Origin: Escherichia coli | GTDB taxonomy: Bacteria; Pseudomonadota; Gammaproteobacteria; Enterobacterales; Enterobacteriaceae | Assembly: GCF_003334305.1 (NCBI RefSeq) | Contig: NZ_QOWS01000048.1 | DNA: 7,079 nucleotides | Strand: one strand, 5' to 3' | Shown: piece by piece, positions 199 to 6,657 of the stretch | Layout: every line of letters starts with the position of its first letter | Numbering within the stretch: position 1 is the first letter of the stretch | Program-made: the position numbers and the translations under genes | The notes under the pieces: model-generated | Told to the model about the DNA's origin: nothing | Seen by the model: the letters and a program-made list of their open reading frames with translations, nothing else | Database searches by the model: none

Positions 199-981
199 TA
201 CAACTGGGTACAGCATGAACCCTCAGACAGAAAACAAAGTGATGAGCGGCTAAAACTGGAGATTAAGGTGGCACATATCCGCACTCGCGAAACATATGGA
301 ACCCGGCGGCTCCAGACGGAGCTGGCAGAGAATGGCATCATCGTTGGTCGTGACCGACTGGCACGTCTTCGTAAGGAGCTAAGGCTACGCTGTAAGCAGA
401 AACGCAAGTTCAGAGCGACTACGAACTCGAACCACAATCTGCCAGTTGCGCCAAATCTGCTGAACCAGACGTTCGCTCCTACAGCACCAAATCAGGTCTG
501 GGTGGCGGACCTGACGTATGTTGCCACACAGGAGGGATGGTTGTACCTCGCTGGCATCAAAGATGTTTATACGTGCGAAATTGTCGGCTACGCCATGGGA
601 GAGCACATGACAAAAGAGCTGACAGGTAAAGCCCTGTTTATGGCGCTCAGGAGCCAGCGCCCACCTGCCGGGCTAATCCATCACTCTGATCGAGGTTCAC
701 AGTACTGCGCATACGATTACCGGATCATACAGGAGCAGTTTGGTCTGAAAACATCAATGTCGCGTAAAGGTAACTGTTACGACAACGCTCCGATGGAAAG
801 CTTCTGGGGAACGCTGAAAAATGAGAGCCTGAGCCACTATCGTTTTAATAACCGGGATGAAGCCATCTCAGTAATACGGGAATACATTGAGATTTTCTAC
901 AATCGTCAGCGTCGTCACTCTCGTCTGGGGAATATCTCCCCGGCAGCCTTCAGGGAAAAATATCATCAGATGACTGCTTAA
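199..981 (+). CDS. IS3-family transposase OrfB (DDE integrase catalytic domain), 5'-truncated
   Basis: The six-frame ORF 268-981 is open in-frame back to 184, with no start codon of its own. Product has IS3-family OrfB hallmarks: ...NQVWVADLTYV...EGWLYLAGIKDVYTCEIVGYAM..., HHSDRGSQYCA..., SMSRKGNCYDNAPMESFWGTLKNE..., YNRQRRHSRLGNISPAAF. Close to but not identical with IS3, IS150 or IS911 OrfB as I recall them. Confidence 0.85.
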   Translation, partial: YNWVQHEPSDRKQSDERLKLEIKVAHIRTRETYGTRRLQTELAENGIIVGRDRLARLRKELRLRCKQKRKFRATTNSNHNLPVAPNLLNQTFAPTAPNQVWVADLTYVATQEGWLYLAGIKDVYTCEIVGYAMGEHMTKELTGKALFMALRSQRPPAGLIHHSDRGSQYCAYDYRIIQEQFGLKTSMSRKGNCYDNAPMESFWGTLKNESLSHYRFNNRDEAISVIREYIEIFYNRQRRHSRLGNISPAAFREKYHQMTA

Positions 982-2587: not shown

Positions 2588-3307
2588 TTATTGGGTTAAA
2601 AGATAATGTTTACCGACACGATTTTCGTACCATTTTATTCCGGCACGAACGAGTGACGCCGTTGAGTCAATATAGCGGGAAGGCTGCTCTTTAACGGCTT
2701 GCGCCAGAATAACCGGAATTTCTGTACAACCAAGAACAAGGATTTCTGCACCGCGAGAAAATAATATTTCAGCCTGCTCATTCATCAACTTTTGTGCGTG
2801 CGCTATATTGCCAGCTTTCAAGGAATAAATACTTTCCATCACTTTTTTCTGACCGTCGGCATCGGGGCTGACACAGGTAAATCCCAGCGACTCAATTCCT
2901 TTTTGGTATAAACCCATATATAGCGTGGCATTGGTGGCTAACAAGCCAATTCGGGTTTTACCACAGGCGCGAACTTCATTGATCGTAGTTTCTACGATAC
3001 TTAATATATCAATATGACAAGCATCTTTTAATTCTTTGAACCAGTAATGCGCGGTATTACAGGGAATAACAATACATTCTGCCCCGGCATCTTCCAGCTT
3101 ATGCATATAATCACGCATAACGGGTAATGGTGAACGCCCATGATGCATTAATGCATCGGTACGGTCAGGAATATCCGGGATCGAAGAAATAATTAAAGGA
3201 ATATGTTCCTGATCACATTGTGCAGCGGTAAAAGTTACAAATTTATTAAACAGGTCGACGGTAGCTGCCGGCCCCATTCCACCGAGTACACCAATTAAAC
3301 CTTTCAC
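2588..3307 (-). CDS. Asp/Glu racemase-family enzyme, aspartate-racemase-like (239 aa; GTG start)
   Basis: Signature motifs of PLP-independent two-cysteine amino-acid racemases: GVLGGMGP near the N-terminus, IVIPCNTAHYW (first catalytic Cys) and LVLGCTEIPV (second catalytic Cys). Start codon is GTG at 3305-3307 with a GAGG Shine-Dalgarno ~10 nt upstream; an in-frame stop lies 4 codons further upstream. Only 65 bp separate it from the downstream Dcu gene on the same strand, with no terminator seen, so the two are probably co-transcribed. Confidence 0.85.
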   Translation of the reverse strand: MKGLIGVLGGMGPAATVDLFNKFVTFTAAQCDQEHIPLIISSIPDIPDRTDALMHHGRSPLPVMRDYMHKLEDAGAECIVIPCNTAHYWFKELKDACHIDILSIVETTINEVRACGKTRIGLLATNATLYMGLYQKGIESLGFTCVSPDADGQKKVMESIYSLKAGNIAHAQKLMNEQAEILFSRGAEILVLGCTEIPVILAQAVKEQPSRYIDSTASLVRAGIKWYENRVGKHYLLTQ

Positions 3308-3651
3308 AATACCTGCCTCTCAAAACGTTAATGACAATACGCGGTAAATAACTGCTGCTCTCTTTTTTAACAGTCGAAATGGGCGATGAGAAATGCAAGG
3401 TTGTACAAGGCGATGCAAGACACGCATGATGCAGCTATGGAACATTCCGCTTATTCACCATAGTGATGATGTATTCTGGTTATCTGACGGAAAAATTTCG
3501 TTTTTTTGGCGAAATGTGATATCAACGTCAATACCGGAAATGAAGGGGTTATGCACAAAACGAATGATAAAGGCCAGGTTGTGCTAATTGAGAACATTAT
3601 TTTTATTGCCGGGATGTTTTATTATGTCTTTGGATTGAAAATACAGGTGCC
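3308..3651. promoter_or_regulatory. Divergent promoter/operator region between the racemase-Dcu operon and the LysR gene
   Basis: 344-bp non-coding gap between divergent start codons. Contains three 10-bp-phased direct repeats (atgcaagg 3393-3400, gtacaagg 3403-3410, atgcaaga 3413-3420), an overlapping ATGC-N7-GCAT dyad (3413-3427) and a TCAC-N4-GTGA dyad (3455-3466) with LysR-type T-N11-A spacing. Confidence 0.5.
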
Positions 3652-4596
3652 ATGGTAATGAAGAATATCGAGACAAAATGGTTATACGATTTCCTGACAC
3701 TGGAAGCCTGTCGCCATTTTTCTCAGGCGGCAAAAGAGCGTAATCTTTCGCAACCCGCATTCAGCCGACGAATTAAGGCGCTGGAGGCAGCGATCGGCGT
3801 TGTTTTATTCGATCGCACGACCACCCCTTTACAATTAACCGAAGAGGGCAAGCTCTTTCATTCCCAGACTCGCAGCTTATTACAGCAGCTTGAATGCAAT
3901 TTGGGGGAGTTAAACGGCCAGAGTTTACTCGGCGTTCCCAACATTAAAATTGCAGCCGCGCACTCACTATCCCTGAGCGTATTACCCAAACTGGTGCATT
4001 CACTTACCGCCTATGGCGGAGAATTTGTCTATCATGTTGAAGCCATTGATGTTGTCCAGGCCGTAAATACGTTACGCGAAGGCAAGAGTGACTTTATTAT
4101 TTCGTTTCGCGATGAAGATCTTATGCAATCGCCTTTTTGCTGCCTGAAACTGTTTGAATCTGAGTTGTACCCGGTATGTGCCGCCGACGCACAGGGGCAC
4201 CCTGTATTCGATATCACTCAGCCCCAGGTTCCTTTGCTCAACTATACCGCCACATCTTATATGGGCAGGTTGGTCAATCGTCATCTGGCAGAGGTTGGAG
4301 GTATTACCGGGCGCACGATATTTATCTCTTCGATGAGCGAGTTATTAAAGAATATGGCGCTCAACGGATACGGCATTGCCTGGTTACCGATCTGGTCGAT
4401 CGTCGATGAACTACAGACCAAACGTCTGATATGCCTTGATGCTGCTAAATTGACAGTCCCCATTCAGGCTTATATTTACCGAATGAACACCCGACTGAAT
4501 AGAACCGCCGAGAACCTCTGGCGTATTTTACAGGAACATATGCCAGACGATTTAATCCAGCAGATATCAATGGAAGAGCCAGCATGCCGCAATTGA
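3652..4596 (+). CDS. LysR-family transcriptional regulator (LTTR), YjiE/HypT-like; true start more likely the ATG at 3658
   Basis: N-terminal winged-HTH region (...LEACRHFSQAAKERNLSQPAFSRRIKALEAAIGVVLFDR...) followed by a LysR-type substrate-binding domain. The N-terminus resembles what I recall of E. coli YjiE (...NIETKWLYDFLTLE...). An AGGTG Shine-Dalgarno at 3645-3649 sits 8 nt before the ATG at 3658 but only 2 nt before the ATG at 3652. Confidence 0.9.
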   Translation: MVMKNIETKWLYDFLTLEACRHFSQAAKERNLSQPAFSRRIKALEAAIGVVLFDRTTTPLQLTEEGKLFHSQTRSLLQQLECNLGELNGQSLLGVPNIKIAAAHSLSLSVLPKLVHSLTAYGGEFVYHVEAIDVVQAVNTLREGKSDFIISFRDEDLMQSPFCCLKLFESELYPVCAADAQGHPVFDITQPQVPLLNYTATSYMGRLVNRHLAEVGGITGRTIFISSMSELLKNMALNGYGIAWLPIWSIVDELQTKRLICLDAAKLTVPIQAYIYRMNTRLNRTAENLWRILQEHMPDDLIQQISMEEPACRN

Positions 4597-4613
4597 CGAC
4601 GTGCAATAAATAT

Positions 4614-4637
4614 CCTCCGGCATAGCCGGAGGTTTTT
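4614..4637 (+). terminator. GC-rich hairpin plus T5 tract 18 bp downstream of the lysR stop (probably the IS200 right-end hairpin)
   Basis: CCTCCGGC-ATA-GCCGGAGG perfect stem (4614-4632) followed by TTTTT (4633-4637) has the form of an intrinsic terminator for plus-strand transcripts. By my boundary estimate it lies inside the IS200 right end. Confidence 0.6.
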
Positions 4638-4713
4638 CAAATGCGCCTATAAGGCTCTCTTACCAGCCGCGCCCTAACAGGCGCACACGATCTGACATTT
4701 GCATCCAACTTCG

Positions 4714-5173
4714 TTACTTACGGTCCGTAAACGGGCTGCCCGGACAGGGAATCGATAACTGCTCTCCCATTTTATCCTCTTCAAGCTGGTGCTTTATGTA
4801 ATCCTGTATCTTCGCCGTGTTCTTACCCACTGTATCGACGTAGTCCCCCCTGCACCAGAACTCCCTGTTCCTGTATTTGAATTTCAAATCACCAAACTGC
4901 TCGTAAAGCATCAGACTGCTTTTCCCTTTCAGATATCCCATAAACCCGGATACGCTCATTTTGGGCGGGATCTCCACAAGCATATGGATATGATCTGCAC
5001 AGCATTCAGCTTCCAGAATCCGTACGCTTTTCCACTCACACAGCTTTCTCAAAATACTGCCTGTTGCTCTACGCTTCTCTCTGTAGAACACCTGTCTTCG
5101 GTATTTTGGCGCAAAAAACTATGTGATATTTACAGTTCCATCGGGTGTGCGCTAAGCTCTTTTCGTTCCCCAT
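4714..5173 (-). pseudogene. tnpA: IS200 transposase tnpA (Y1/HuH), apparently frameshifted
   Basis: ATG at 5173 (minus) opens MGNEKSLAHTRWNCKYHIVF, then the frame changes at a T6 run (plus A6 at 5113-5118). The remainder ...FAPKYRRQVFYREKRRATGSILRKLCEWKSVRILEAECCADHIHMLVEIPPKMS...FWCRGDYVDTVGKNTAKIQDYIKHQLEEDKMGEQLSIPCPGSPFTDRK* is in another frame (six-frame ORF 4714-5091). The intact IS200 TnpA as I recall it reads through ...KYHIVFAPKYRRQ..., so this copy appears to carry one extra T. Confidence 0.75.
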
Positions 5174-5179
5174 TGGGAC

Positions 5180-5249
5180 CCCCTTTTGATTTCTTGTTTG
5201 ACACTTGCAGTTGCCAGACCGCAAGGTGTTTTAACAAATCAAAAGGGGT
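5180..5249 (-). promoter_or_regulatory. IS200 5'UTR stem-loop that sequesters the tnpA ribosome-binding site
   Basis: Perfect 13-bp inverted repeat: CCCCUUUUGAUUU pairs with AAAUCAAAAGGGG across a ~44-nt loop on the minus-strand transcript. The 3' arm contains the AAGGGGG Shine-Dalgarno just upstream of the AUG at 5173. Matches the described IS200 nt 69-138 structure. Confidence 0.7.
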
Positions 5250-5283
5250 TTTAATAACTGGCTCAAAGCTGAAAGCTTTCCGG

Positions 5284-5306
5284 AACCCCCAGCCTAGCTG
5301 GGAGTT
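5284..5306 (-). promoter_or_regulatory. IS200 left-end hairpin (described as blocking read-in transcription)
   Basis: Minus-strand AACTCCCAGC-TAG-GCTGGGGGTT forms a 10-bp stem (one G.U pair) with a 3-nt loop, 23 nt in total, at the position expected for the IS200 nt 12-34 hairpin. Confidence 0.55.
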
Positions 5307-5316
5307 TTCTGTGCAC

Positions 5317-5344
5317 AAAAAAACCCTGTAAAAAACTTACAGGG
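5317..5344 (-). terminator. Perfect palindrome plus T7 tract (minus-strand intrinsic terminator) abutting the IS200 left end
   Basis: Minus strand reads CCCTGTAA-GTTTT-TTACAGGG followed by TTTTTTT (plus 5324-5344 stem-loop, plus 5317-5323 A7): an 8-bp perfect stem with a U-tract. Confidence 0.55.
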
Positions 5345-5942
5345 GTATAAGGCTTAGCCTAACTTGCGTCTGTTGCATGGTGCCGGGTGCCTCCCGGTGA
5401 ATTCAGTCGGTGTCACTGAACCCGCGTAGGCTTCGCTCATAACATAATAAATGCTATGTACACCAGTCGCCCCACCGCACAGGGGGATTCACCACACGGC
5501 GCACTTTTTAACAAATATCCCTCCGGCCAGACAATAATAAACATAATGAATTGTGATCTTCTTAACAGTTTTAAAGTGTTACAGATAACATGCCAAGTAA
5601 TTGCTTGTTTTTTCATCAATAGGAAGACCACACCAACAACCCCAGCTATCAGCCAGAACCGACATTATCCGGCTGATAAAATCTACCATCACTCCAACAC
5701 CAATCACCGCCTGTGCCAGATCGCGTTTCTCAAACTTTTTAATCTCTGTTGCCACTCTGCGGGTTTTCTTTTTGAATTTTGAAAATACCAAATATCGTGA
5801 CGTTTCTTTGGGGGATGAGCTATCAAGCGGGAACGATCTGCCTACAGAGAAAGTCAGCCAGACCACTCTGCAAATTATCCCCGAAAGGCTCTGTGGCTGA
5901 TATGCGCCGGGCATGGCGCAATGGGCCAGTGGCAGTGTGTGA

Positions 5943-6015
5943 TGGTGGCCCTTACTGGATTTGAACCAGCGACCAAGCGATTATGAGTCCTCTTACCACT
6001 GAGCTAAAGGGTTGG
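5943..6015 (-). tRNA. Degenerate tRNA(CAU)-like sequence resembling tRNA-Ile2 (ileX/ileY-like); probable pseudogene or attachment-site relic
   Basis: Minus strand reads AACCCTTTAGCTCAGTGGTAAGAGGACTCATAATCGCTTGGTCGCTGGTTCAAATCCAGTAAGGGCCACCA. The T-arm, variable loop, CTCATAA anticodon loop (CAT) and 3' acceptor-CCA are recognisable and resemble E. coli tRNA-Ile2 as I recall it. However ~5 nt are missing at the D-stem/anticodon-stem junction, and the first two acceptor-stem positions (AA instead of GG) cannot pair with the 3' strand. Confidence 0.55.
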
Positions 6016-6279
6016 AGAACGCAATATCACCTGTCTTATATGATTACACCCAGAATTTCCCGGACTGTCTTGTCAAAACATTCAGTCTCCAATTCCCACC
6101 AATAGCAAGACGGTCACTATGACAGCATCTCCGGAATGAGCTCAGGGCACGGGGGTTTACCGAGGTTACTTTTCCAACGAAGTTTCTCAAACGCAGGCGT
6201 GACAGATAACATTCAAACTTAGGATCTCAGTTGCTATCTTTTCCCATGTCTTACGGATTAATGTCATCGGTTGCATACA

Positions 6280-6657
6280 AATCGCTACAAGCTGCATCAA
6301 GGCACATGCTTCATATGTACAGTACACCAAGATGGATAGGTGTTTCACCTAATCCTAGCTCATTTCAGGCAGGCTCAACAGGCTGCAGCCCGCATGTTTA
6401 AGGGCGCAGGTTATCAGCAGGTTATAAGCTGACCGGATACATTCCGGCAAAGAAAAACCTTGCAGCGATGAAAGCCGTTTCGGTAATGCAATGACGATAA
6501 AGCTGTCCTGTATATATGTGCTTCGCCTCAAACGCTTGCCGTTTTGGTATTGTGCACATGCCGTCTGAACGATGTGGAGCCAGAAAAATGGATGCGTTAT
6601 GTCATTGAGCATATCTAGGACTGGCCGGCAAACCGGGTACACGATCTGTTGCTCTAA
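6280..6657 (+). pseudogene. IS66-family transposase (TnpC) C-terminal remnant, degraded
   Basis: Frame-1 translation 6487-6657 gives ...AVLVLCTCRLNDVEPEKWMRYVIEHI*DWPANRVHDLLL*, which resembles the conserved IS66 TnpC C-terminus (...LIGTCKLNDVDPE.YLRHVL..IADWPVNRVSELLPW) as I recall it, but with an in-frame TAG at 6616-6618. Upstream similarity (e.g. CIKAHA at ~6290-6307, where CWAHARRK would be expected) is weak and needs frame changes. Possible element terminus GCGCTTAC at 6756-6763 or 6704-6711 (reverse complement GTAAGCG...). Confidence 0.45.

Follow-up and report, generated by a model that had tools for sequence, protein, structure and literature searches.

The right end of an IS200C element as the probable transcription terminator of a lysR gene in Escherichia coli

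The right end (RE) of an IS200C insertion sequence probably supplies the transcription terminator of the LysR-family regulator gene that precedes it in a 7,079-nucleotide stretch of the Escherichia coli chromosome (contig NZ_QOWS01000048.1 of assembly GCF_003334305.1; hereafter the window). The explanation that we favour, at a probability of roughly 70%, is that the element landed precisely at the terminator of STnc100, a small RNA gene convergent with lysR, and that the RE hairpin with its run of five T residues ends lysR transcripts as a by-product of that landing.

Results

The window belongs to the accessory part of the E. coli chromosome, in a genomic island, and its positions 4560-5400 are 100% identical in strains such as Ecol_AZ159. 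The regulator gene, here called lysR, occupies 3658..4596 on the plus strand according to the list of open reading frames, RefSeq and Pfam (HTH_1 and LysR_substrate domains); in the window sequence the frame opens at 3652 or 3658 and closes with the TGA at 4594-4596, as the original prediction had it. The gene is divergent from an Asp/Glu racemase-family gene (2588-3307) and a C4-dicarboxylate (Dcu) transporter gene (1224-2522), both annotated by RefSeq on the minus strand. RefSeq annotation of the identical locus also records an IS600 fragment, and gene remnants lie beyond the frameshifted IS200/IS605 tnpA. A weak Rfam match to a tRNA at 5946-6013 was unconfirmed by ARAGORN and was set aside.

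RefSeq names the regulator 'hypT'. It shares 64% DNA identity and 59% amino-acid identity with K-12 hypT (b4327) and the two neighbourhoods differ, so that the window gene is a HypT paralogue; for the same reasons K-12 hypT was discarded as an IS-free orthologue. Orthologues with 74-84% amino-acid identity and the same Dcu and racemase synteny occur in Citrobacter, Trabulsiella, Limnobaculum, Providencia and Proteus.

The IS200C copy spans 4605..5317 (713 bp, against a consensus insert of 712 bp), with its top strand and tnpA on the minus strand, its RE at 4605 and its left end at 5317; both termini carry an A/T ambiguity of 1-2 nt. These boundaries come from alignment with six plasmid copies, Salmonella IS200F, Yersinia IS1541A and an empty site in phage P1. 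Copies from other genomes and plasmids begin to match the window at 4604-4605. The six plasmid copies of IS200C, whose flanks are unrelated, have a common sequence that opens at AATAAATATCC (4605) and on the far side is shared through ...TTTTCTGTGCAC (5316), followed by one or two ambiguous A's. The stretch AATAAATATCCTCCGGCATAGCCGGAGGTTTTTCA is common to these six and to IS200F and IS1541A, again with unrelated flanks, and the latter two have the same 35-nt end, hairpin and T5 included. Similarity between copies stops at 4604/4605, which leaves a host spacer of 8 nt, CGACGTGC (4597..4604, plus strand), between the lysR stop and the RE terminus. The terminus had been estimated at about 4611, some 15 nt past the stop; the copy alignments and the P1 site move it by 6 nt. 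The companion claim, that the hairpin at 4614-4632 and the T5 at 4633-4637 lie inside the element, is borne out, as unrelated copies are identical from 4605 onward.

The window copy is 97-99% identical to copies annotated as IS200C and has the features of its family: a Y1 (HUH) TnpA of about 152 aa, no terminal inverted repeats, neither end being an inverted copy of the other, two subterminal hairpins (RE 4614-4632, left end 5286-5304) and, as judged from the P1 sister copy and the junctions examined, insertion without target-site duplication and with the left end beside a short specific target. Its tnpA (4714..5173, minus strand) is a pseudogene, annotated by RefSeq as IS200/IS605 family 'frameshifted', and Pfam detects a Y1_Tnp domain in the called fragment; the frameshift stems from an extra A at 5113 that six intact copies lack. 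The element is a non-autonomous relic, though clearly a member of the family by descent. Some genomes retain an intact tnpA at the same site, which indicates that the decay is recent. The left-end region, comprising the tnpA 5'UTR and art200 (5183..5306, minus strand), gives a full-length match of 143 bits to Rfam STnc490 (RF01405), and the left-end hairpin, which lies in this region, has a G-to-A change at 5303 that weakens it.

The RE subterminal hairpin, CCTCCGGC-ATA-GCCGGAGG (4614..4632), has the anatomy of an intrinsic terminator for lysR. Its stem begins 17 nt past the stop codon on the same strand and consists of 8 pairs, seven of them G-C, closed by a loop of 3 nt, with a folding energy of -14.8 kcal/mol. 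It is followed by UUUUUCAAAU, whose T5 tract (4633..4637, plus strand) lies directly 3' of the hairpin in the lysR direction; on the tnpA strand the same bases read as an A5, 5' of the hairpin foot. Hairpin and T5 are identical in eight copies of IS200C, IS200F and IS1541A with unrelated flanks. The terminator scan reports the hairpin on both strands, with the tail TTTTTCAAAT. Folding of 4590-4645 gives -18 kcal/mol and z = -3.2 on the plus strand, where none of 200 shuffled sequences folded as well; z is -4.9 on the minus strand. A d'Aubenton-Carafa-type score, computed with modern folding energies so that only its sign and ranking carry meaning, is +26.5 in the lysR direction with the U5 and -12.9 on the minus (tnpA-sense) strand, where the hairpin is followed by AUAUUUAUU. 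On these scores the hairpin would be asymmetric, stronger against transcription coming from outside the element. A triloop and a U-run of only five mean that termination could be partial. By analogy with other members of the family, the hairpin would be the RE structure recognised by TnpA, at the 3' end of tnpA on the minus strand.

The plus-strand scan downstream of lysR found no terminator-like site other than the RE hairpin and the left-end hairpin, listed there at 5288-5302; both are borne by the element. The claim that the hairpin and T-tract act as the lysR terminator stands as far as anatomy and position go, activity being predicted from sequence; the 3' end of the lysR mRNA is predicted at about 4636-4640. 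Our search of the literature returned no publication testing the IS200 RE hairpin as a terminator.

The precision of IS200-group insertion could be read directly from a sister IS200C copy that sits between pro and lydE on a P1-like plasmid. The uninterrupted site in phage P1 reads ...TAACCACC-AAAAA-TAACCCCGGCAGCTGCCGGGG... (also given as CCACC-AAAAA-TAACCCCGG), and comparison of the empty and occupied sites, which concerns this sister copy and not the lysR locus, yields an insert of 712 bp with nothing duplicated or deleted and with ends ambiguous by 1-2 A/T. Such precise insertion is what one would expect of the IS200/IS605 family. The P1 empty site has no RE hairpin.

The Citrobacter orthologues raise the question of whether the hairpin might instead be the native chromosomal terminator of lysR, with the IS boundary to its right. 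Several of them are free of IS200 and carry a related native terminator about 30 nt past the stop (...GGCGCATCTGAAAAACCTCCGGTTATCCGGAGGTTTTTTT). Its hairpin is CCTCCGG-TTAT-CCGGAGG, flanked by A5 and T7 (GAAAAACCTCCGG...CCGGAGG motif), and the terminator of one orthologue scores +46. Within a 400-kb sequence set it resembles the IS200 RE over 34-37 nt at about 91% identity (E about 1e-5), and a search of 120 fetched loci for the motif CCTCCGG-N3-6-CCGGAGG located it in IS200 copies and these Citrobacter terminators and nowhere else. The likeness could be either an ancient relic or convergence. It does not rescue a native origin for the hairpin in the window, because the sequence that flanks the hairpin on either side in the window is identical to the IS consensus; moreover, the Citrobacter hairpin has the opposite orientation relative to lysR and differs from the IS200 RE in loop and position. 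The alignments with unrelated copies (IS200C on plasmids, IS200F and IS1541A, all identical to the window from 4605) and the P1 empty site refute a native origin, to which we assign virtually no chance. The original prediction had named a native hairpin as the finding that would overturn it, and the identical sequence in unrelated IS copies shows the hairpin to be IS-borne.

The gene from which the insertion parted lysR can be named. Rfam identifies a full-length STnc100 (RF02076, 136 bits, model positions 1-206) at 5313..5527 on the minus strand, convergent with lysR; the proposal that the element had separated lysR from a former neighbour thus proved correct, and the neighbour is this small RNA gene. 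STnc100 has been associated with prophages and islands (bioRxiv 10.64898/2026.05.13.724894). By terminator scan and folding, its terminator is the insertion target (5318..5344, minus strand), made up of a U/T-tract at 5318-5323 (with 5317 if that base is host) and an 8-bp hairpin at 5324-5344, and the left end of the IS directly adjoins the T-tract. The target of the element was this T-tract and not lysR.

The same arrangement recurs elsewhere. At every junction examined (six plasmid copies, a tandem copy, Salmonella IS200F, Yersinia IS1541A, the P1 site and the lysR locus) a hairpin and then a T-rich run directly precede the left end, as read on the tnpA strand; in the tandem copy the left end abuts the RE of another IS200. 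Fold energies of seven left-end flanks range from -10.5 to -21 kcal/mol; an eighth flank was taken from the alignment with the plasmid copies, and those in Salmonella and Yersinia from the IS200F/IS1541A alignment. This agrees with a recent survey in which sequences resembling terminators were strongly enriched directly upstream of IS200/IS605 elements (bioRxiv 10.1101/2025.07.22.666184). In three of the six plasmid copies the RE lies 0-6 nt past the stop of a coding sequence convergent with tnpA. The RE comes to rest beside a convergent gene since the terminator T-tracts that serve as targets often face the 3' end of such a gene.

Complementarity links the T-run of the target to an AGAAAA directly 5' of the left-end hairpin (palindrome 5305-5322), and the T-rich tip of the RE to the A5 directly 5' of the RE hairpin. 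By analogy with the target-recognition model for IS608 (Ronning 2005 and Barabas 2008, as cited in PMC5027513), the A-runs 5' of both hairpins may be guide sequences, and such a role would explain why both ends of the element look like terminators. IS200C resembles the IS608 system in the absence of terminal inverted repeats, in having one hairpin per end, in the lack of target duplication and in a left end that abuts a short target. It differs in that its target is a T-run after a terminator hairpin rather than TTAC, and guide pairing is here suggested by complementarity.

Removal of 4605-5317 gives the reconstructed site TGA-CGACGTGC-AAAAAA-CCCTGTAAAAAACTTACAGGG-GTATAAGG. In this reconstruction the lysR stop and the 3' end of the convergent STnc100 gene would have been 8 nt apart, and the RE abuts lysR because the STnc100 terminator lay just that distance beyond the stop. 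The STnc100 hairpin has no U-tract in the lysR direction, where it scores -55, against +19 in its own direction. Since lysR is now followed by a hairpin and U5, and had no U-tract in its direction before the insertion, the IS is probably the source of the lysR terminator; it would have added a terminator instead of replacing one. The pre-insertion state is a reconstruction, and a small deletion on the RE side of the lysR locus, at or after insertion, is a slim possibility.

That the insertion removed the original 3' end of lysR, its terminator or both was part of the original prediction, and two observations point that way. The E. coli protein has 312 aa and ends in a lineage-specific tail of 12 residues (...DLIQQISMEEPACRN); the Citrobacter orthologues have 303 aa and end in ...DLVSLS, the last three residues standing where E. 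coli has its tail. In addition, direct comparison lacks an empty site, none having been found in 5,426 E. coli genomes. Against removal stands an M19-type allele, present in six genomes and without IS200 at this position, which is 88% identical in DNA and has the same C-terminal tail and stop codon, differing there by a 6-bp indel and a few substitutions. The tail is then older than the IS or independent of it, the coding 3' end of lysR was not made by the IS, and the unusual end appears to derive from an older rearrangement. With IS200-group insertion precise at P1, the left-end flank intact and typical of a target, and no earlier U-tract terminator in the reconstruction, we regard such a removal as very unlikely and the claim as unsupported. 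The M19 allele was itself considered as an empty site and ruled out: directly past the stop codon it gives way to a fragment of a group II intron, and the STnc100 flank is absent.

The junction between lysR and the RE is present in 329 of 5,426 complete E. coli genomes, as detected with a 54-nt probe, and the window-type lysR allele in about 350 genomes. A 50-nt probe for the empty junction matched none of the 5,426. A query of 300+300 nt of flank for the empty site gave only IS-containing, two-piece matches, and two metagenome pattern scans for an IS-free copy returned nothing or 43 chance matches unrelated to the locus. The exact lysR protein occurs in seven distinct contexts, with the IS in all of them. 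Strains E597 and 19AR0646, which had appeared IS-free or different, carry the same IS200 copy, cut short by a subsequent insertion. The IS200 insertion beside lysR is old and has been inherited with the island.

Discussion

We propose that the element inserted precisely at the 3' edge of the STnc100 terminator T-tract, the usual kind of target for the IS200 group, and in doing so would have placed its RE hairpin behind the convergent lysR gene. RNA polymerase leaving lysR would transcribe the 8-bp hairpin, with its seven G-C pairs, and then the U5, and most transcripts would be expected to end at about 4636-4640. Termination at the RE would shield the IS from antisense read-through, and two hairpin barriers would part lysR transcription from STnc100. 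The hairpin and its A/T flanks would exist for transposition, that is for TnpA binding and for pairing at the cleavage site, and for self-insulation of the IS. Termination of lysR thus looks like a by-product and not an adaptation, an ordinary side effect of the choice of site by IS200.

A competing account holds that the RE hairpin serves the IS alone, as the structure bound by TnpA and as the 3' end of tnpA, that it adds little to the lysR 3' end and that lysR transcription ends mainly through Rho, in the untranslated antisense RNA of the IS, or at the left-end hairpin (5286-5304). The untranslated region past a stop codon is the usual substrate of Rho, the U-run at the RE is only five long and the loop is a triloop. 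Identity of the hairpin and its flanks across IS200C, IS200F and IS1541A fits selection for transposition rather than for a host gene. Set against this, the terminator score of hairpin and U5 is positive for transcription from lysR, experiments have shown the left-end hairpin, of similar build, to be an efficient terminator (PMC5435999), and run-on to the left end of this copy would meet a hairpin weakened by the change at 5303. On balance we consider this account unlikely, though deserving of some weight, and prefer termination at the RE.

The closest known counterpart is at the other end of the element. The left-end hairpin of IS200 (nt 12-34) is described as terminating transcription independently of Rho in both directions (Beuzon et al. 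1999, as cited in PMC4513863 and PMC5435999) and stops about 85% of impinging transcripts (PMC5435999, PMC4513863). The two hairpins belong to the same family and share a design, in which a G-C-rich stem of 8 bp carries a loop of 3 nt and is flanked by A/T-rich sequence. The left-end hairpin blocks transcription entering the IS from outside, whereas the RE lies at the opposite end and faces a host gene reading into the IS antisense to tnpA. In Salmonella, host transcripts ending at the IS200 terminator were proposed to yield STnc290 and STnc440 (Sittka et al. 2008; PMC2515195). There too a transposon hairpin is proposed to set the 3' end of a host RNA. Those RNAs involve the left-end terminator in the tnpA sense, unlike the lysR case, which involves the RE in antisense and for which we claim no stable RNA product.

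As an ordinary IS200 end in the setting usual for IS200, the feature matters mainly for annotation: the IS boundary belongs at 4605, 'hypT' is a HypT paralogue, and STnc100 is the original convergent neighbour of lysR. The locus is also a clear example of an IS200 element that lands at the terminator T-tract of one gene and brings its own hairpins, so that both convergent neighbours would stay transcriptionally insulated. Such insulation fits the view of IS200 as a low-impact, nearly silent resident. If termination of host transcripts at the RE holds true, the locus would add a modest documented instance in which the end of a transposon sets where a host mRNA stops.

A further possibility is exaptation, in which the dead IS, or at least its RE hairpin, has been kept by selection as a lysR terminator and an insulator between lysR and STnc100. 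Several observations are consistent with it: (i) the junction is found in 329 complete genomes and the empty site in none; (ii) a similar-looking terminator follows the same gene in the Citrobacter orthologues; (iii) RE-only remnants occur elsewhere, one of them, on a Klebsiella plasmid, directly beside the stop codon of a different, unrelated LysR gene; (iv) an analogous proposal has been made for Borrelia, where, according to work of Delihas as cited in PMC3184786, IS605 end stem-loops are kept at the 3' ends of lipoprotein genes and were proposed to act there. The Borrelia and lysR cases have in common an IS200/IS605 end hairpin beside the 3' end of a host gene. They differ in that the Borrelia hairpins are orphaned from the transposase gene, whereas the lysR locus keeps a whole, recently inactivated IS. 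Retention of the whole element, and not of the hairpin alone, argues against exaptation, as do the genomes with an intact tnpA at the site, which imply recent decay. Clonal inheritance of a nearly immobile element would explain the fixation equally well, IS200 being largely dormant (PMC4513863). We therefore think exaptation distinctly improbable and retain the by-product reading for lysR.

More generally, IS200 RE hairpins might be recurrently co-opted as terminators or insulators for host genes that converge on terminator T-tract targets, a role through which the hairpin would outlive the transposase. This is quite unlikely in our estimation; what points to it is the combination of the fixed and decaying copy in the window, the RE-like hairpin after the orthologous lysR of Citrobacter and the remnant on the Klebsiella plasmid. 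That remnant retains 50 nt of the RE directly at the stop of its LysR gene, and RE-only remnants survive elsewhere as well.

The regulator gene and its 3' flank

The LysR gene at 3658-4596 (plus strand) is annotated 'hypT', and its product shares only 59% identity with K-12 HypT. Its neighbours are the genes for an Asp/Glu racemase-family protein and a Dcu transporter, and orthologues in Citrobacter, Providencia and Proteus have these same neighbours. The product is probably a regulator of the divergent racemase/Dcu operon, rather than a hypochlorite sensor. It ends in an E. coli-specific tail, QQISMEEPACRN.

Orthologous loci in Citrobacter carry a native terminator 3' of lysR (3925-3975 in locus L022; also in L024, L026, L027, L028 and L055), consisting of GAAAAACCTCCGG-TTAT-CCGGAGG-T7. 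Over 34-37 nt this terminator is approximately 91% identical to the hairpin and flank of the IS200 right end, but the IS200-like stretch in Citrobacter lies in inverted orientation. This likeness to the IS200 right end may be a relic or may reflect convergence. In the divergent allele of E. coli M19, a fragment of a group II intron maturase (3286-3560 of locus L009) begins immediately 3' of the lysR stop codon; the bases just past the stop have therefore been a mobile-DNA junction at least twice.

The ends of IS200

In the window, tnpA is frameshifted by an extra A at 5113, and the left-end terminator hairpin has lost one base pair through a G-to-A change at 5303. The same insertion in other genomes, for example strain E597 (locus L010), still has an intact tnpA.

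The AGAAAA that immediately precedes the left-end hairpin on its 5' side is complementary to the T-run target adjoining the left end (5305-5322), and at the right end the T-rich tip is complementary to the A5 directly 5' of the hairpin (4609-4637). These complementarities match the pattern of guide-sequence and cleavage-site pairing known from IS608, and by analogy such pairing may explain the terminator-like look of the IS200 ends. The K. pneumoniae plasmid pC308_3 (locus L008) carries two IS200 copies in direct tandem, so placed that one copy's left end adjoins the tip of the other copy's right end (hairpin plus ATATTTATT); the IS200 right end therefore mimics the target of the element itself.

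Right ends also occur on their own. Plasmid pmk2 of Klebsiella sp. PL-2018 holds an IS200-like right-end remnant of approximately 50-70 nt, with hairpin and T5 (195-260 of locus L123). On one side this remnant lies immediately next to the stop codon of an unrelated LysR gene, and on the other an IS6-family element truncates it. IS200 remnants with the right end only are likewise found on pO157 and other plasmids.

STnc100 and the surrounding island

At the left end of IS200 lies a full-length match to the small RNA STnc100 (5313-5527, minus strand; Rfam RF02076, 136 bits), convergent with lysR. STnc100 is associated with prophages and islands. The IS200 insertion point is the T-tract of its terminator, and both the sRNA and its own terminator look intact.

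Rfam gives a weak tRNA-like match at 5946-6013 (minus strand) that scores 30.7 bits, where the gathering score is 29. Its anticodon arm is defective, and ARAGORN found no tRNA; the match may be due to chance, or may mark a fragment derived from a tRNA at the boundary of an island or prophage. The region is an island in decay and mosaic in make-up. Around the locus lie gene remnants: a fragment of an IS600 transposase gene (560-981, plus strand), a DUF3927 fragment and a frameshifted hypothetical gene (5678-5791 and 6120-6310, respectively, both minus strand). Further insertions are found in the same region of other genomes, ISEcp1-blaCMY-2 in E597 and IS3 in 19AR0646.
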